From a virus (Duplodnaviria; Heunggongvirae; Uroviricota; Caudoviricetes), in IMG/VR virus record IMGVR_UViG_2778261543_000006, positions 1-7,361 of that record: 7,361 nucleotides of DNA; one strand, written 5' to 3'. This document shows, in pieces, positions 1-6,254 of this stretch (the first letter of the stretch is position 1; each line of letters begins with the position of its first letter). The position numbers were made by a program, and so were the translations under genes. Below the pieces are notes generated by a model. It worked only from the letters and a program-made list of their open reading frames with translations, was not told where the DNA came from and did no database searches.

Positions 1-53
1 TTTTAATCAGCGAGTCAGCTTGGGAAGAAATGACCTGCTTATTCGCACCTTCC
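1..53. repeat. Left arm of a perfect 53-bp terminal inverted repeat; partner at 7307-7359
   Basis: Bases 1-53 are the exact reverse complement of 7307-7359. Identity drops immediately inward (1 mismatch then 3 matches, then unrelated). This copy lies inside the O-like ORF and reads through in frame, so it appears native here. Confidence 0.95.
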
Positions 54-265
54 CTAACCCAATCCAGTTTTTTATTAAAGCCATATGTTTTGCGCATGAC
101 AGCCAGAAAGACCAGAAGCTGGTGCTGTGTTAATCCGGCCAGCATCACAGCTTCCAGCAACTCATTTGCAATGCGCGTATAACCATCATCGAGATCTGCC
201 ACGCGCGGCTCCTTTTGTGCCACATCCGGCACTGGAAAATTGAATATCTCAGCAGTGTTTGCCAT
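1..265 (-). CDS. Lambdoid replication initiation protein O-like, N-terminal 88 codons; 3' end lies beyond the left window edge
   Basis: Minus-strand ATG at 265..263 preceded by GGGAGG. Translation [88 protein letters not shown], open to position 1. The pattern (..NVADLDDGY.R..N.LLEA...LT..Q..VLLA..RKTYGWNK) resembles the lambda O N-terminal domain as recalled. Absent from the ORF track because it has no in-window stop. Confidence 0.7.
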   Translation of the reverse strand, partial: MANTAEIFNFPVPDVAQKEPRVADLDDGYTRIANELLEAVMLAGLTQHQLLVFLAVMRKTYGFNKKLDWVREGANKQVISSQADSLIK

Positions 266-282
266 AATTCCTCCCGCAATGA

Positions 283-552
283 GTGCGTTACGATTTGCAC
301 CTGAAAGTCGGCTCTGTTCCCGCAGACCGGCTTTCGCCATTTCTGAGCCTGTCATATTGCCCCCAACATGGTGGTAACCATCGCCATCAATGGACCAGCC
401 AGATGCTGGTCAAACGCAAAGATGGTACCTGGACTGCATCAGCTAATTTACGCGGACGACTTTATCTGCATCGCGGCATTGAGCGCACTTATACCCGTGA
501 CTTGCTCGTGGAAGTTTTTCTCGACGGACGCGGCAACGGTCTGAATCACTAA
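283..552 (+). CDS. Hypothetical small ORF occupying the position of lambda kil (GTG start at 283; an internal ATG at 397 would give 51 aa)
   Basis: ORF-track entry of 89 aa ending at TAA 550-552, the position where kil ends in lambda relative to gam. The sequence does not resemble lambda Kil as I recall it, and no convincing RBS was found. Could be non-coding. Confidence 0.2.
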   Translation: MRYDLHLKVGSVPADRLSPFLSLSYCPQHGGNHRHQWTSQMLVKRKDGTWTASANLRGRLYLHRGIERTYTRDLLVEVFLDGRGNGLNH

Positions 553-627
553 TCCCCTTTCCTGTTTTCCGAATCAGCCTGGCATTCCGCGGGCGATTTT
601 TTCACAGCCATTTTCAGGAGTTCAGCC

Positions 628-924
628 ATGAACGCTTATTACATTCAGGATCGTCTTGAGGCTCAGAGCTGGGCGCGTCACTACCAGCAGATCGCCCGTG
701 AAGAGAAAGAGGCAGAACTGGCAGACGACATGGAAAAAGGCCTGCCCCAGCACCTGTTTGAATCGCTATGCATCGATCATTTGCAACGCCACGGGGCCAG
801 CAAAAAAGCCATTACCCGTGCGTTTGATGACGATGTTGAGTTTCAGGAGCGCATGGCAGAACACATCCGGTACATGGTTGAAACCATTGCTCACCACCAG
901 GTTGATATTGATTCAGAGGTATAA
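628..924 (+). CDS. gam: Gam, RecBCD nuclease inhibitor (short GamS form, 98 aa)
   Basis: Translation [98 protein letters not shown] is recognisable as phage lambda Gam with at most a few substitutions. AGGAG RBS 7 nt upstream of the ATG. Followed 5 bp later by bet, as in lambda. Confidence 0.9.
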
Positions 925-929
925 AACGG

Positions 930-1442
930 ATGAGTACAGCACTCGCAACGCTGGCAGGGAAGCTGGCTGAACGTGTCGGCATGGATTCTGTCGACCCACA
1001 GGAACTGATCACCACTCTTCGCCAGACGGCATTTAAAGGTGATGCCAGCGATGCGCAGTTCATCGCATTGTTGATCGTCGCCAACCAGTACGGCCTTAAT
1101 CCGTGGACGAAAGAAATTTACGCCTTCCCTGATAAGCAGAACGGCATCGTTCCGGTGGTGGGCGTTGATGGCTGGTCCCGCATCATCAATGAAAACCAGC
1201 AGTTTGATGGCATGGACTTTGAGCAGGACAATGAATCCTGTACATGCCGGATTTACCGCAAGGACCGTAATCATCCGATCTGCGTTATCGAGATGGCACA
1301 TAGCCTCGCTCAAATTGGAGTCAGGTTTGTGCCAATACCAGTAGAAACAGACGAAGAATTTCATACGTTAGCCGCATCCCTTTCACAAAAGCTGGAAATG
1401 ATGGTGGCGAAAGCAGAAGCAGATGAGAGAGACCAGGTATGA
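930..1442 (+). pseudogene. bet: Truncated bet (Red-beta / RecT-family recombinase): N-terminal 119 codons fused in frame to a 51-codon unrelated tail, probably an exonuclease C-terminal remnant
   Basis: Residues 1-119 (MSTALATLAGKLAERVGMDSVDPQELITTLRQTAFKGDASDAQFIALLIVANQYGLNPWTKEIYAFPDKQNGIVPVVGVDGWSRIINENQQFDGMDFEQDNESCTCRIYRKDRNHPICV) match lambda Bet as recalled. Homology ends at 1286/1287 and the ORF continues IEMAHSLAQIGVRFVP...DERDQV. Lambda Bet is 261 aa, so the recombinase core is incomplete. GAGGT RBS upstream. Confidence 0.8.
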
Positions 1443-1522
1443 CAACCACGGAATGCATTTTTCTGGCAGCGGGCTTCATATTCTGTGTGCTTATGCTTGC
1501 CGACATGGGACTTGTTCAATGA
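1439..1522 (+). CDS. Hypothetical 27-aa hydrophobic peptide (MTTTECIFLAAGFIFCVLMLADMGLVQ), a single predicted transmembrane helix
   Basis: Its ATG overlaps the stop of the upstream ORF (ATGA at 1439-1442) and its stop overlaps the next ATG (ATGA at 1519-1522), the classic phage translational-coupling arrangement. Very short, so coding status is uncertain. Confidence 0.25.
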   Translation: MTTTECIFLAAGFIFCVLMLADMGLVQ

Positions 1523-1734
1523 CACCTCAGCAGGAAAACGCCCTTCGCAGCATTGCCCGTCAGGCTAATTCTGAAATCAAAAAAGCCAGACAGCAGTTTC
1601 CGGATAAAAACGTCGATGACATTTGCCGTAGCGTACTGAAGAAGCACCGCGAAACGGTAACGCTGATGGGATTCACACCGACTCATTTAAGCCTGGCGAT
1701 CGGCATGTTAAACGGCGTCTTTAAGGAACGGTGA
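1519..1734 (+). CDS. Hypothetical phage protein, 71 aa (MTPQQENALRSIARQANSEIKKARQQFPDKNVDDICRSVLKKHRETVTLMGFTPTHLSLAIGMLNGVFKER)
   Basis: Internal ATG of the ORF-track entry 1423..1734, chosen because it is coupled by ATGA overlap to the preceding small ORF. Charged, helical-looking composition. No family recognised. Confidence 0.45.
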   Translation: MTPQQENALRSIARQANSEIKKARQQFPDKNVDDICRSVLKKHRETVTLMGFTPTHLSLAIGMLNGVFKER

Positions 1735-1756
1735 ACATGAAAAGCAAAATCATCAG

Positions 1757-1777
1757 GGAGCTACAGGCTCCTTTTTT
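1757..1777 (+). terminator. Candidate weak intrinsic terminator (GGAGC-tacag-GCTCC followed by TTTTTT)
   Basis: 5-bp stem, 5-nt loop and a T6 run seen directly. The stem is short, and the element lies inside a possible 29-aa ORF (1737..1826, MKSKIIRELQAPFLLFAFILKRINQQFRD). Confidence 0.25.
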
Positions 1778-1832
1778 ATTGTTCGCATTCATCCTCAAGC
1801 GTATTAACCAACAATTCAGGGATTAATGGAAG

Positions 1833-2051
1833 ATGGCAGACATCATTGATTCGGCATCAGAAATCGAAGAATTACAGCGCAATACAGCAATAAAAATGCG
1901 TCGTCTGAACTACCAGACTGTATCCGCAACTCATTGTTGTGAGTGTGGCGATCCGATAGATGAGCGAAGACGCCTGGCTGTTCAGGGTTGTCGGACTTGT
2001 GCAAGTTGCCAGGAGGAGATCGAACTTAAGAACAAACAATGGGGACTGTGA
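1833..2051 (+). CDS. TraR/DksA-family C4 zinc-finger protein, 72 aa
   Basis: Translation contains CxxC-G-x2-I-x3-R ... CxxC (HCCECGDPIDERRRLAVQGCRTCASC), the signature of the TraR/DksA zinc finger. A TraR-like gene is common in the int-proximal accessory region of lambdoid phages. Confidence 0.7.
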   Translation: MADIIDSASEIEELQRNTAIKMRRLNYQTVSATHCCECGDPIDERRRLAVQGCRTCASCQEEIELKNKQWGL

Positions 2052-2098
2052 TGGCCTCAAAGCAGCAAATTTCAACATCGTCCAACTGAGGTGTAAAA

Positions 2099-2377
2099 AT
2101 GTTCAGAATCATTTTTCCTAACACCTGGTACGTCGACCACCACGGCACTCCCTGCAAAATCCTGCGTTCTACCCACAACAAAGTTCACTACATCCGAAAA
2201 GGCAGAACATGTATCGCCAGCATGTTCCGCTTTAATCATGACTTTGAACCTGTGAATAAAGCTGATGCAGATCGGATAGCAGAAGAGATCGAAACGGCAG
2301 AACACATTAAGAAGTTACGTGACATGCGTTCAAAAAGCAGAGGTAACCATGGAATCATACAGCCTCACACTCGATGA
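2099..2377 (+). CDS. Hypothetical phage protein, 92 aa
   Basis: Strong RBS (GAGGTG) 6 nt upstream of the ATG. Same orientation as the int operon. No family recognised. Confidence 0.4.
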   Translation: MFRIIFPNTWYVDHHGTPCKILRSTHNKVHYIRKGRTCIASMFRFNHDFEPVNKADADRIAEEIETAEHIKKLRDMRSKSRGNHGIIQPHTR

Positions 2378-2720
2378 GGCCTGTCAGTTTCTTAAGATAT
2401 CCAGACCAACCGCCACCAACTGGATACGAACAGGCCGCCTACAGGCAACACGTAAAGATCCAACCAAGCCAAAATCTCCTTACCTCACAACACGGCAAGC
2501 CTGCATTGCGGCGCTTCAGTCTCCGCTGCATACTGTCCAGGTGAGCGCGGGTGATGGCATAACAGAGGAAAGAAAATGTCACTCTTCCGCAGAAATGAAA
2601 TATGGTATGCCTCGTATTCGCTCCCGGGCGGGAAACGAATTAAGGAATCTCTTGGCACAAAGGACAAGCGGCAAGCTCAGGAGTTGCACGACAAGCGAAA
2701 AGCAGAACTCTGGCGAGTAG
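2349..2720 (+). CDS. xis: Putative excisionase / AlpA-like helix-turn-helix protein; 3' end runs 145 nt into int and may be frameshift-extended
   Basis: Internal ATG at 2349 with GAGGT RBS. N-terminus [33 protein letters not shown] fits the winged-HTH excisionase pattern. Sits immediately upstream of and overlapping int. Its 123 codons are longer than typical excisionases. Confidence 0.45.
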
Positions 2721-3739
2721 AAAAGCTAGGGGATTTACCTGATGTCACTTTTGAAGAGGCCTGCCTAAGATGGCTTGAGGAAAAAGCTGATAAAAAATCT
2801 CTCGATTCAGATAAAAGCCGGATTGAGTTCTGGCTTGAACATTTTGAGGGTATAAGGCTTAAAGATATCTCGGAGGCAAAGATTTACTCTGCTGTAAGCA
2901 GAATGCATAACAGAAAGACGAAAGAAATATGGAAACAGAAAGTTCAGGCCGCCATCAGGAAAGGTAAAGAACCGCCTGTTTATGAACCAAAGCCAGTATC
3001 AACTCAGACAAAGGCAAAGCATCTTGCCATGATAAAGGCCATTCTCCGTGCTGCAGAACGCGACTGGAAGTGGCTGGAAAAAGCGCCTGTCATCAAGATA
3101 CCAGCGGTCAGAAACAAGCGAGTCAGATGGCTGGAAAAGGAGGAAGCAAAACGCCTTATTGATGAGTGCCCCGAACCACTGAAATCTGTCGTCAAGTTTG
3201 CGCTGGCAACTGGTCTGAGAAAGTCGAACATCATAAATCTGGAATGGCAACAAATCGACATGCAGCGACGAGTTGCCTGGGTGAATCCAGAAGAGAGCAA
3301 ATCAAACCGCGCCATTGGTGTGGCGCTGAACGATACCGCCTGTAAAGTGTTGCGTGATCAAATAGGCAAGCATCACAAATGGGTGTTTGTACATACCAAG
3401 GCGGCTAAGCGAGCAGATGGAACATCAACGCCTGCGGTCAGGAAGATGCGCATCGACAGCAAGACATCATGGCTATCAGCTTGTCGTCGTGCAGGAATTG
3501 AAGATTTCCGTTTCCATGACCTCAGACACACCTGGGCAAGCTGGCTGATTCAGTCAGGCGTCCCATTATCAGTGCTTCAGGAAATGGGCGGATGGGAGTC
3601 CATAGAAATGGTTCGTAGGTATGCTCACCTTGCGCCTAATCATTTGACAGAGCATGCGAGGAAAATAGACGACATTTTTGGTGATAATGTCCCAAATATG
3701 TCCCACTCTGGAATTATGGAGGATATAAAGAAGGCGTAA
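2576..3739 (+). CDS. intD: Phage tyrosine integrase (site-specific recombinase), 387 aa, IntD-like (DLP12 family)
   Basis: GAGGAAAG RBS upstream. C-terminal catalytic motifs visible: Arg in [16 protein letters not shown]-x-x-R in [11 protein letters not shown], and the tyrosine in MVRRYAHL. The N-terminus [28 protein letters not shown] and the position next to argU match the E. coli DLP12 integrase as I recall it. Confidence 0.9.
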
Positions 3740-3754
3740 CTGATTGAATTGTAA

Positions 3755-3831
3755 TGGCGCGCCCTGCAGGATTCGAACCTGCGGCCCACGACTTAGAAGG
3801 TCGTTGCTCTATCCAACTGAGCTAAGGGCGC
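3755..3831 (-). tRNA. argU: tRNA-Arg (anticodon UCU), 77 nt with encoded CCA
   Basis: Minus-strand sequence GCGCCCTTAGCTCAGTTGGATAGAGCAACGACCTTCTAAGTCGTGGGCCGCAGGTTCGAATCCTGCAGGGCGCGCCA folds as a cloverleaf with the anticodon loop cuUCUaa. Matches E. coli argU, a known lambdoid prophage attachment site. Confidence 0.93.
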
Positions 3832-3862
3832 GTTGATACCGCAATGCGGTGTAATCGCGTGA

Positions 3863-3890
3863 ATTATACGGTCAACCCTTGCTGAGTCAA
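3863..3890 (-). promoter_or_regulatory. Candidate sigma-70 promoter for argU (-35 TTGACT, 16-bp spacer, -10 TATAAT)
   Basis: Read on the minus strand: TTGACT at 3890..3885 and TATAAT at 3868..3863. The -10 hexamer ends 31 nt upstream of the mature tRNA 5' end, consistent with a short processed leader. Confidence 0.45.
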
Positions 3891-4073
3891 TGGCTTTTGA
3901 TCTGGTTGCTGAACAAGTGAACGACCGCGTCTGATTTTCTGATTTATTTCGCTATAGCGGCAAACAAACACACACCGCTGCGCGTCTGAATCAAGAAAAC
4001 CCGTATTTTCATGTATCAAAGTACAATTTACCGCCCTAACGGAAAATTGTCCGCTCCTATGAGACTGGTAACT

Positions 4074-4706
4074 ATGAAACCAACGTCGGTGATCATTATG
4101 GATACTCATCCTATCATCAGAATGTCTATTGAAGTTCTGTTGCAAAAAAACAGTGAATTGCAGATTGTCCTGAAAACGGATGATTACCGCATAACCATCG
4201 ATTATCTCCGAACCCGTCCTGTTGATTTAATCATTATGGATATAGACTTGCCCGGAACAGACGGTTTTACCTTCCTGAAAAGGATCAAACAAATCCAGAG
4301 CACAGTGAAAGTGTTATTTTTATCATCGAAATCAGAATGCTTTTATGCTGGCAGAGCGATACAAGCTGGTGCTAACGGTTTTGTCAGTAAATGCAATGAT
4401 CAGAATGATATTTTTCATGCCGTTCAGATGATCCTCTCCGGATACACGTTTTTTCCTAGCGAAACGCTTAACTATATAAAAAGCAATAAATGTAGTACGA
4501 ATAGTTCAACGGTCACTGTGCTATCTAATCGTGAAGTGACCATATTACGTTATCTGGTTAGCGGATTATCTAATAAAGAAATTGCCGATAAGTTATTACT
4601 TAGCAATAAAACAGTTAGTGCGCATAAATCTAATATTTATGGCAAGCTAGGTTTGCATTCAATTGTAGAGCTTATCGACTACGCCAAATTATACGAATTA
4701 ATATAA
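4074..4706 (+). CDS. fimZ: FimZ, LuxR/NarL-family two-component response regulator (210 aa) regulating fimbrial expression
   Basis: Receiver domain (DLIIMDIDLPGTDG) and C-terminal LuxR HTH (LSNREVTILRYLVSGLSNKEIADKLLLSNKTVSAHKSNIYGKLG). Start taken at MKPTSVIIMD, the internal ATG of ORF 4011..4706, giving the known 210-aa length. AT-rich gene, as is typical for fimZ. Confidence 0.9.
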   Translation: MKPTSVIIMDTHPIIRMSIEVLLQKNSELQIVLKTDDYRITIDYLRTRPVDLIIMDIDLPGTDGFTFLKRIKQIQSTVKVLFLSSKSECFYAGRAIQAGANGFVSKCNDQNDIFHAVQMILSGYTFFPSETLNYIKSNKCSTNSSTVTVLSNREVTILRYLVSGLSNKEIADKLLLSNKTVSAHKSNIYGKLGLHSIVELIDYAKLYELI

Positions 4707-4708
4707 TA

Positions 4709-5224
4709 TTAATTATAATTGATCATAAATATCGCATCCGCTTTCGCCACACCTGGCCGAACACCGCTGGCTAACGCTCGATAATTGGCAAAAAAGTTTA
4801 GTGTGACATTGCCATTTGCATCTACTTCCTCAGTCGGGCTCGCCTCCCCCAGTGCGAGCCGGGAGCGATCGCTATTACGTAATTCGATGGCGACGGTTTG
4901 TGCCATTGCGGGATCATCCAGAGCCAGCAGGTTGGTATCGGATGCCGGCGTTCCCGTAAATAAAATCGCAACTGAACCCGGAGGACATCCCTCCAGCCGC
5001 AGGCTAAAAGGGACGAGTGCCGTGGTATCGCCAGCGTTCAGTAATTGTGTCGTAGGCCATCTGCCTAAATCTACCGTCTTATCAATATCCGCAGTGTTTA
5101 CGGTACAGGAGAAATCAACAACGTTACCGTGCAAATTGATATTAATCGTTCCCAAAGGGTCAGCTGCCCATCCACTGGAAATCCACAGTAACCCGCAGAA
5201 ACAGCTAAAGAGTGCTCTTCTCAT
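4709..5224 (-). CDS. sfmF: SfmF, minor fimbrial subunit (171 aa)
   Basis: Start at MRRALFSCFCGLLWISSGWA (signal peptide) with a GGAG RBS, rather than the upstream ATG of ORF-track entry 4709..5419 that would overlap sfmH. Fimbrial-subunit-like composition. Lies between sfmH and fimZ as in the E. coli sfm locus. Confidence 0.85.
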   Translation of the reverse strand: MRRALFSCFCGLLWISSGWAADPLGTININLHGNVVDFSCTVNTADIDKTVDLGRWPTTQLLNAGDTTALVPFSLRLEGCPPGSVAILFTGTPASDTNLLALDDPAMAQTVAIELRNSDRSRLALGEASPTEEVDANGNVTLNFFANYRALASGVRPGVAKADAIFMINYN

Positions 5225-5234
5225 TCTCCGTACC

Positions 5235-6242
5235 TCATTGATAATCGACGCGTAAATACCCCAGCGCGCTAAACGGCCCTTCGGTCGGTTTTTGACCGGT
5301 AATACTGATAGGCCAGGCGCGAAGTGTGACATTGGCTGCCGCAGCTGCATCCAGACGGAAAGGAATAACGCTATTGAGATCGTTAGGCGTGATCGGCGTA
5401 TCGTTCTGATCGGCGACAATAAAACCTAAATCCTGATTGTCCGACACCATCGCCTGACCAGAAACGGCACTGGCTTCCAGACGCATTGTTAAATAAGCCT
5501 GCGCAGCAACATTCGTACATTTGACCGCAATGCTCTTGGTTTGCGGCATGACACCAGCAGGTCGATTACCCGGCCCTGCCGCACTAAATAACGATGCGCC
5601 GATATCACCAAAATCAAATTCAACAATCTGCCCGGCATTTAATTCGCAGTTTTGCGGTACTTCAACCCGGCCACCAAAACTAATGGTATAAACAGGTGTA
5701 ACCAACGGATCGTAAGGCGTTGATGTCACATACACGGTAAACATCACCTGTCTGGGGATCTCCACCATGTTAATAAAGGGACGAATAACCTTTAAACGAA
5801 ATATTAAACGAGAATCCATCACCCCGAATGGAAGGTTTTGCGAAACGTTAGGATCTGTTCCCATCAGAATATAATTTTGCGGGGGGAACTGAATATCCAT
5901 CACACTATCAACCAGACTCATCGCACCTAATAGATAATCATTTAATTGCATATATTTATAATTATCGATAGTTTCCTGAACAATAAAGTTGGTGACATAA
6001 CTACGGTATGTATAATTCACCAGCGTACCGGGTGGACAAATTGCTGAGACACCTACCCAGCCGGATTTTTCCGGTAAAACAACAATCTGCCCTGGCTGGT
6101 TATTGGTGCTATTAAAGATATTTGAGAGATCATAGTGTTCATCTTCTGCTACGCCAGTACTATTTGCACAAACAGTAGCCCAGGATATGTTTGCCAGACA
6201 CAAACATGCCATCGCCAATAATAATCTGCAGATTATCTTCAT
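5235..6242 (-). CDS. sfmH: SfmH, FimH-like fimbrial tip adhesin (335 aa as called)
   Basis: N-terminal signal peptide MKIICRLLLAMACLCLANISWA, with an AGGAAA RBS immediately after the sfmD stop. Size and two-domain adhesin-like composition fit. An alternative internal start is possible. Confidence 0.85.
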   Translation of the reverse strand: MKIICRLLLAMACLCLANISWATVCANSTGVAEDEHYDLSNIFNSTNNQPGQIVVLPEKSGWVGVSAICPPGTLVNYTYRSYVTNFIVQETIDNYKYMQLNDYLLGAMSLVDSVMDIQFPPQNYILMGTDPNVSQNLPFGVMDSRLIFRLKVIRPFINMVEIPRQVMFTVYVTSTPYDPLVTPVYTISFGGRVEVPQNCELNAGQIVEFDFGDIGASLFSAAGPGNRPAGVMPQTKSIAVKCTNVAAQAYLTMRLEASAVSGQAMVSDNQDLGFIVADQNDTPITPNDLNSVIPFRLDAAAAANVTLRAWPISITGQKPTEGPFSALGYLRVDYQ

Positions 6243-6254
6243 TGATAATTTCCT

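Follow-up and report, generated by a model that had tools for sequence, protein, structure and literature searches.

Which protein-coding genes lie between orf63 and orf73 in the exo-xis block of lambda and Shiga toxin (Stx) phages, and where does orf61 begin? The question is raised by a prophage locus in the window (the whole analysed stretch of 7,361 nucleotides, positions 1 to 7,361 of IMG/VR virus record IMGVR_UViG_2778261543_000006), in which an unannotated open reading frame (ORF) of 27 codons lies between the end of orf63 and the 71-codon frame of orf61 and overlaps each of them at an ATGA. The literature on the exo-xis block up to 2024 gives five proteins for this conserved region, and the product of the 27-codon ORF is not among them. 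We regard it as a credible uncharacterised small gene hidden by the classic annotation of lambda, within a cluster that as a whole is already known, and put the probability at about 0.65 that it is a separate, translationally coupled gene encoding a very hydrophobic peptide and that the real Orf61 is a protein of 71 amino acids starting at position 1519.

A small open reading frame between orf63 and orf61

Window coordinates 1286 to 2051 are recognisable by alignment as the orf63-orf61-orf73 segment of the lambda-type early-left exo-xis block (orf60a-orf63-orf61-orf73-ea22; the "bin" region), with 96-100% identity to lambda, 933W, VT2-Sakai, HK630, and ev243. In the alignment with lambda and phage ev243 the identity to lambda is 98% over 1286-1860 and approximately 98% over 1286-2051, 174 phage records cover at least 80% of window 1250-2100, and both the order of the genes on the pL-transcribed strand (exo-orf60a-orf63-orf61-orf73-(ea22/variable)-xis-int) and the predicted terminator t2 and promoter p1 are the same. 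The window copy differs in having lost exo, orf60a, the 3' half of bet, 12 codons of orf63, and the immunity region with pL; ea22 is also absent, and intact relatives have exo and orf60a upstream. In lambda and Stx phages the block (orf63, orf61, t2, orf73) is transcribed from pL early in lytic growth, and it influences the lysis-lysogeny decision and prophage induction. An earlier note on this DNA had proposed an int-proximal cassette of host-interaction or defence genes; the locus is instead this conserved block, and the PADLOC hidden Markov models (HMMs) give no match at E <= 1 for the 27-, 71-, and 31-amino acid products or the DUF4222 product.

The same note described a chain of small ORFs joined by ATGA stop/start overlaps, and this is confirmed from the sequence. 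The upstream stop codon (TGA, 1440-1442) shares bases with the ATG of the 27-codon ORF (1439-1441), and the TGA of the latter (1520-1522) shares bases with the ATG of the 71-codon frame (1519-1521). A Shine-Dalgarno-like GAGAGAGA, of moderate strength (-5.3 kcal/mol), lies 6 nucleotides upstream of the first ATG, and the ORF fills exactly the 76-nucleotide gap that RefSeq leaves empty after orf63. Lambda carries the identical peptide, at lambda 30,925-31,008, inside its annotated "orf61", which is read in another frame; one base differs across the displayed lambda-window alignment, which extends from upstream of orf63 to 1657.

Among the 34 ATG-initiated ORFs of 20-40 amino acids in the window, this one ranks first for the hydrophobicity of its predicted product, with a grand average of hydropathy (GRAVY) of 1.62 and a best 19-residue window of 2.33 on the Kyte-Doolittle scale. 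Its apolar core of 16 residues (C6-A21) has E5 and D22 at its flanks, there are no basic residues, and the peptide is hydrophobic enough to form one membrane-embedded helix, as had been anticipated. The homology search proposed with that prediction assigned it to no family, there being no meaningful match in Pfam, PHROGs, NCBIfam, or PADLOC, and its sequence does not occur in searchable papers or in the Sakai small-ORF supplements; databases hold it only as an occasional "hypothetical protein" (UniRef A0A0A2SGE8_ECOLX). The same 90% protein cluster also contains two unrelated glycosyltransferase-like proteins of 428 amino acids (P0082 and P0083), an evident clustering artefact. Programmed frameshifting from the 27-codon ORF into orf61 was considered and rejected, as there is no slippery heptamer and the fusion proteins in databases come from indel-ridden assemblies.

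Of 5426 complete E. coli genomes, 3142 (approximately 58%) carry the 84-nucleotide ORF, and the complete genomes together hold 4255 copies. The arrangement is not due to chance: among 178 distinct contexts from IMG/VR and phages (1.2 kb each, de-duplicated), 145 have the same overlaps. The commonest arrangement, context i (123 distinct contexts), is orf60a-orf63-[27 codons]-orf61. In context ii (21 contexts) a 185-amino acid Dam methylase (Pfam E = 2e-56) takes the place of orf63; homology resumes exactly at the ATG of the small ORF, the ATGA overlap is kept, and a strong Shine-Dalgarno sequence, GGGAGG, lies 4 nucleotides upstream. The 27-codon ORF therefore travels as a unit with orf61, joined to whichever gene precedes it. 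In context iii (20 contexts; orf60a-250-amino acid ORF-orf61) the small ORF is missing, and orf61 is read from the same ATG behind its own GAGG with seven different first codons and no upstream extension, which fixes the orf61 start at 1519. The 250-amino acid ORF that replaces orf63 and the small ORF in this context (L094 741-1493 and relatives) has no Pfam match.

These distributions bear on a further proposal of the earlier note, namely that the 27-amino acid peptide is a toxin for which the 71-amino acid product provides rescue. The peptide is similar in size and hydrophobicity to small membrane toxins, and the two ORFs are tightly linked in the 145 of 178 contexts. Such a pairing is nonetheless disfavoured because lambda keeps an intact 27-codon ORF beside a frameshifted orf61, and in context iii orf61 occurs with no 27-codon ORF. 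Furthermore, no antisense promoter or small RNA was found, PADLOC gives no match, and the ORF forms part of a polycistronic early operon rather than a stand-alone regulated cassette, and we consider a toxin and antidote most improbable. Type I toxin peptides such as Hok/Gef, Ldr, Ibs, ShoB, TisB, and DinQ are hydrophobic, 19-50 amino acids long, and prophage-associated, and the 27-amino acid peptide is like them in these respects; it differs in that its ORF is operon-internal with ATGA coupling, in having no basic residues, in coexisting with the defective orf61 of lambda, and in having no obvious need of an antidote. As to the antisense RNA or separate promoter of type I systems, there is no promoter-like site on either strand of 1250-2150 and no Rfam match, although consensus scans are weak evidence.

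Selection on the 27-codon frame and the extent of orf61

To compare copies we used 307 loci from IMG/VR contigs, phage records, and E. coli genomes; these collections overlap in part, and we therefore counted distinct substitutions, for which the expected synonymous fraction is 0.27-0.28 and which are treated without a recombination model. Within the interior of the small ORF (1442-1518), 15 of 29 distinct substitutions are synonymous in the 27-codon frame (expected 0.27; P = 0.0035), as are nine of the 12 variants seen in at least three loci (P = 7e-4). The two other frames of the same strand give 6/29 and 7/29 (P = 0.84 and 0.75, not significant), while the control genes orf61 (25/53; P = 0.0026) and orf73 (34/71; P = 2e-4) show comparable excesses; rough omega values obtained by one method are approximately 0.35 for the 27-codon ORF, 0.44 for orf61, and 0.42 for orf73. 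An identical peptide is encoded in 126 of the 145 distinct contexts with the ORF, by 14 different 84-nucleotide DNA haplotypes, and the amino acid replacements that do occur are mostly conservative hydrophobic swaps. A search with a degenerate back-translated pattern requiring a non-canonical wobble base gave one informative viral match, haplotype L313, in which five of five differences are synonymous in the 27-codon frame and all are non-synonymous in the longer orf61 frame; five metagenome matches were due to chance. The 27-codon frame is under frame-specific purifying selection and behaves as protein-coding, and the lack of conservation that the earlier note named as counter-evidence is not what is found. 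Coding by an antisense ORF at 1321..1506 was also considered and rejected, its ATG being lost in several loci (1504C>T), with no signal over the orf63 part and a similar antisense by-product at orf61 and orf73.

Conservation might alternatively reflect a regulatory element, either a promoter or an RNA structure, with the ORF being incidental. A weak promoter, p2, was predicted in this stretch by BPROM (score 0.59, -35 ATGCAT, -10 TCATATTCT; Bloch et al. 2014, PMC4195576). However, the variation has a three-base periodicity in one frame, which neither a promoter nor an RNA element would produce, our consensus scan identifies no promoter-like site in 1250-2150, and no Rfam family matches, such that this explanation is very hard to sustain.

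A second possibility is that the 27 codons act as a translational relay only, passing ribosomes from the upstream stop to a weak orf61 start, with a functionless peptide. The ATGA overlaps are conserved at both ends, the Shine-Dalgarno match of the orf61 start is weak (-3.9 kcal/mol), the small ORF is absent where orf61 has its own GAGG, and the neighbouring 31-codon ORF looks like just such a link, translated in lambda yet unconstrained. A pure relay should tolerate amino acid change, however, and the near-invariance of the peptide across haplotypes, its omega, and the conservative nature of its replacements all argue otherwise. We therefore consider a relay without a functional peptide unlikely, although it is the strongest of the competing explanations.

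The third alternative concerns orf61 itself. The 71 codons make up the 3' portion of a longer frame, also open, that can start at ATG 1423 (103 amino acids) or ATG 1453 (93 amino acids) and that overlaps the 27-codon ORF in a different phase. The annotated orf61 of lambda (30839..31024) begins at the equivalent of window 1423 and overlaps the orf63 stop by 20 nucleotides, the Stx phage annotations (Phi24B/933W) give a 93-amino acid product from the equivalent of ATG 1453, and the current RefSeq pipeline annotates the 71-amino acid protein from 1519. If a long Orf61 were real, the 27-codon ORF would be a meaningless alternative frame. The long frame is open in the window, no protein cluster has more members than that of its 93-amino acid form (P0003, 1695 members), on which PHROG 303 was built, yeast two-hybrid and deletion studies used the long model, and Escherichia sp. 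E1V33 enters this frame from an ATG that has a GGAGG upstream and an ATGA overlap. Variation in the long frame indicates no constraint, with only 6 of 24 changes from 1456 onward being synonymous and the remainder including radical replacements (G>R, H>Y, S>P, C>Y, and C>F). Moreover, 1450G>T creates a TGA in the long frame in 107 loci, ATG 1423 is missing from the commonest haplotype, no usable Shine-Dalgarno sequence precedes ATG 1453, and in context iii orf61 starts at 1519 directly after the stop codon of another gene.

The protein evidence points the same way. The 71-amino acid Orf61 modelled alone gives a confident three-helix AlphaFold2 structure (predicted local distance difference test, pLDDT, 89.5), and phrog_303 matches it with E = 4.7e-36 over profile positions 23-93 of 101; residues 1-23 of the 93-amino acid model are reported to be inconsistent between modelling methods (PMC8614690). 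A long Orf61 is thus improbable, and within the reading that we prefer, the 61-amino acid lambda and 93-amino acid Phi24B/933W models would read this stretch in the wrong frame, the true start of Orf61 being ATG 1519.

The lambda model is further distorted within orf61, where an extra A in a run of six (A7 in laboratory lambda) causes the annotated frame to stop after 61 codons. All other copies have A6, apart from 14 loci with A7 that are mostly lambda contamination in unrelated assemblies. The orf61 of the lambda lysogen BW2952 is a "frameshifted" pseudogene in RefSeq, while NC_001416 still lists a 61-amino acid protein, and lambda Orf61 is described as looking truncated and unfolded (PMC8614690). 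Assemblies assigned to Shewanella, Pseudomonas, Bradyrhizobium, Kitasatospora, Oceanobacillus, and other taxa contain near-complete lambda genomes (approximately 48.4 kb); the lambda sequences in such unrelated assemblies (L171-L184) are almost certainly lambda DNA contamination or spike-in.

Several other observations concern Orf61. Some copies are named "cell division protein ZapA" in RefSeq, and this relationship was rejected: the match to PF05164 is 16.1 bits (E = 0.014; cutoff 23.8), and a Foldseek search of the Orf61 model against the Protein Data Bank (PDB) gave no match at E <= 0.001 and no ZapA among the matches listed. Residues 42-64 (GFTPTHLSLAIGMLNG) have a weak ankyrin-repeat-like match (E = 3e-4 to ankyrin-1). 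Apparently distant homologues with 51-57% identity (P0071, P0073, and P0074) proved to be frameshifted assemblies of near-identical DNA. A minus-strand terminator-like hairpin with a T-run lies inside orf61 at 1586-1603, the region having two such sites against a chance mean of 1.2, a number within chance expectation.

Set against a functional 27-codon gene are the following. Ribosome profiling of lambda, as reviewed, confirmed the annotated ORFs, including orf61, and added ORFs of 7 and 31 amino acids, orf2311 and orf2313 (PMC8614690); these two are the only additions that the review lists, and translation of the 27-codon ORF is thus a prediction, although footprints within it would have counted as orf61 since it lies inside that annotation. 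The apolar core of 16 residues is short for a transmembrane helix and lacks flanking basic residues. Approximately 11% of contexts have orf61 without the small ORF, and in E1V33 (L170 1300-1720) a 355-amino acid gene with a DGQHR motif ends GCATGA with an overlapping ATG and GGAGG upstream, after which the first seven bases are as in the small ORF and the next 14 nucleotides are missing relative to the E. coli copies. That ATG reads the long frame to give a 93-amino acid protein, and the small frame survives as a 17-codon GTG remnant. We read this arrangement, a fourth context found in 0 of 5426 complete E. coli genomes, as a lineage-specific fusion; it shows that some phages can do without the 27-amino acid peptide, and it leaves the 93-amino acid model some weight. 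On the opposite strand, the frame whose wobble positions coincide with those of the small ORF also has a synonymous excess, though a weaker one (12/29; P = 0.026), and orf61 and orf73 each show an antisense by-product of this kind. A scan of one genome per species found the ORF only in Escherichia and in lambda-contaminated assemblies of unrelated taxa, and tblastn of the peptide against phages gave no copy below 90% identity except one chance match; because the copies are less than 10% diverged and restricted to Escherichia lambdoid phages, the selection test rests on approximately 30 substitution events. Finally, pL has been deleted from the prophage in the window, such that expression of the cluster there is doubtful and it may be silent.

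If the 27-codon ORF is a gene, as we favour, ribosomes finishing the upstream gene, whether orf63 or the Dam methylase, would restart at the overlapping ATGA, and termination at the second ATGA would hand them to the weakly signalled orf61 start. The whole would form a termination-reinitiation relay from orf63 through the 27-, 71-, and 31-codon ORFs to orf73, possibly by way of a 7-codon ORF. Its 27-codon link would be selected for the peptide as well, which would most likely be a small membrane-embedded accessory protein or modulator acting on a host or phage membrane target in early lytic development.

The decayed prophage at argU and the neighbouring features

Window coordinates 1250-2100 match E. 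coli PSS-07 exactly. The RefSeq annotation of that strain gives, in order, ren and P' (opposite strand), gam, a bet pseudogene, a DUF1382 protein, a hypothetical protein (window 1519-1734), a TraR/DksA regulator, a DUF4222 protein, a partial helix-turn-helix gene, intD, tRNA-Arg, and fimZ. In the window the order is gam, bet', orf63', the 27-codon ORF, orf61, orf73, DUF4222, an xis remnant, intD, and argU, and the locus is a decayed DLP12-like lambdoid prophage at argU that has lost its immunity region and pL; it is a less-reduced relative of DLP12 of K-12. A P' remnant and ren (206-924, minus strand) adjoin gam (a short form of 98 amino acids, plus strand), and the whole immunity region (kil, cIII, N, pL, cI, cro, cII, and O) has therefore been deleted. 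Table 1 sets out the features around the small ORF.

Table 1. Features of the window from the bet/orf63 fusion to orf73 (window coordinates).
Feature	Coordinates	Strand	Basis
Fusion ORF Bet(1-119)::Orf63(13-63), 170 amino acids	930..1442	+	ORF list, Pfam, alignment to ev243 and lambda
Unannotated 27-codon ORF (MTTTECIFLAAGFIFCVLMLADMGLVQ)	1439..1522	+	Sequence; ATGA overlaps at both ends
orf61 homologue, 71 amino acids, RefSeq WP_000188870.1	1519..1734	+	RefSeq coding sequence at same coordinates; start in context iii
A6 run inside orf61	1579..1584	+	Alignment; A7 in laboratory lambda
31-codon ORF (29 codons from ATG 1737)	GTG 1731..1826	+	ORF lists; AAGGAA at 1723-1728
Intrinsic-terminator-like hairpin and T-run, predicted terminator t2	1755..1778 (stem 1755-1773)	+	Scan; fold -10.2 kcal/mol, z = -3.3
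7-codon ORF MEDGRHH (lambda MKDGRHH)	1826..1849	+	ATG shares its A with the TAA of the 31-codon ORF; overlaps orf73 start
orf73 homologue, TraR/DksA-type zinc finger, 72 amino acids	1833..2051	+	Pfam zf-dskA_traR, E = 2.8e-9

The ORF preceding the 27-codon ORF ends GTATGA and is the product of a deletion that removed the remainder of bet, exo, orf60a, and the first 12 codons of orf63, with an in-frame junction at approximately 1286-1288 and 2 bp of microhomology (TA). The earlier note had called it a bet' tail; its stop does overlap the start of the small ORF, but the tail is not random, consisting of the C-terminal 51 codons of orf63 joined in frame to bet codon 119. RefSeq gives it as two features, a bet pseudogene (930-1292) and a DUF1382 coding sequence (1293-1442), whereas the Pfam RecT and DUF1382 families both match the single product. 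The DUF1382/Orf63 match (PF07131; 74.1 bits, gathering threshold 27, E = 9.4e-21) covers profile positions 15-60 of 60 and residues encoded by 1293-1439, and the 12 N-terminal residues of Orf63 are lacking. In a search of the 5426 complete E. coli genomes, PSS-07 is the only one of the best 25 records listed whose match runs unbroken across the junction. Towards its 3' end (1293-1438) orf63 has no synonymous excess (8/31), the C-terminal tail occurs as two alleles, ADERDQV and ANERDPA, and the end of Orf63 seems weakly constrained.

Downstream of orf61, GTG 1731 forms a GTGA overlap with the orf61 stop, and lambda has an ATG there, which gives another ATGA overlap. In the orf60a-orf73 region of lambda (L003 2890-3720) a single 31-amino acid ORF is listed on the leftward-transcribed strand, the homologue of 1731-1826, and by this correspondence the window ORF is therefore probably orf2313 of the ribosome-profiling study. 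It is without significant protein-level constraint (13/34 synonymous; P = 0.11). The earlier note had pointed out a 29-codon ORF with an AAGGAA and an embedded hairpin and T-run; these features are present, with 31 codons if read from the GTG, but the hairpin was already published as the predicted terminator t2 between orf61 and orf73, overlapped by the predicted promoter p1, whose -10 box lies in the T-run (Bloch et al. 2014, PMC4195576). We speculate that translation of the 31-codon ORF might simply let ribosomes stay bound to the mRNA as they pass the t2 hairpin. The 7-codon ORF may correspond to the 7-amino acid orf2311, judging from its size and place. The orf73 product has a C4 zinc finger of the TraR/DksA type (PF01258; 37.3 bits, cutoff 24.9; residues 33-64) with a visible CxxC...CxxC, and lambda Orf73 binds RNA polymerase (PMC9239242).

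Relation to known systems and to orf61 phenotypes

The features of this locus have parallels in well-known systems. Coupling by stop/start overlap (ATGA or TGATG) is known in the trp operon, for example, and the overlaps in the window (ATGA at 1439-1442 and 1519-1522, (A/G)TGA at 1731-1734, and TAATG at 1824-1828) link orf63 to orf73 without a break; the difference is that coupling here is deduced from sequence and that two of the links, of 27 and 31 codons, are tiny ORFs themselves. E. coli also has single-helix membrane accessory peptides, including KdpF (29 amino acids, with no basic residues), AcrZ, and CydX, which the 27-amino acid peptide resembles in its length, its one apolar stretch, its position within an operon, and its apparent translational linkage to neighbours. 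Unlike these, it has neither sequence similarity to them nor a known partner, it is phage-borne, its membrane insertion is predicted, and if expressed it would be made early in lytic growth.

Published phenotypes can be re-read in this light. A lambda "orf61" frameshift allele delays phage development after induction with mitomycin C or H2O2 (Bloch et al. 2014, PMC4195576). The base that this allele deletes, the C at window position 1490, belongs to codon 18 of the 27-codon ORF and is upstream of where the real orf61 begins, and the real orf61 of lambda is already frameshifted. In the delta-orf61 mutants of Dydecka et al. (2018) the annotated orf61 sequence was replaced, and this contains the entire 27-codon ORF in lambda and most of it in Phi24B. 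It is tempting, if still rather doubtful, to suppose both that the peptide is a genuine unnamed gene in phage lambda and in Stx phages and that at least part of the "orf61" phenotypes (delayed development, lysis-lysogeny balance, and possibly the "bin" block of host replication) is due to its loss.

Nothing in these findings suggests a biological system of a new kind. Should the 27-codon ORF be real, an unnamed gene is present in one of biology's most intensively studied genomes, and the orf61 models of lambda (61 amino acids) and Phi24B/933W (93 amino acids) are partly artefacts. The structural models, two-hybrid interactions, and deletion and frameshift phenotypes that were built on them would then need to be re-read, and a peptide encoded in more than half of complete E. 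coli genomes would be a concrete target for simple genetics.

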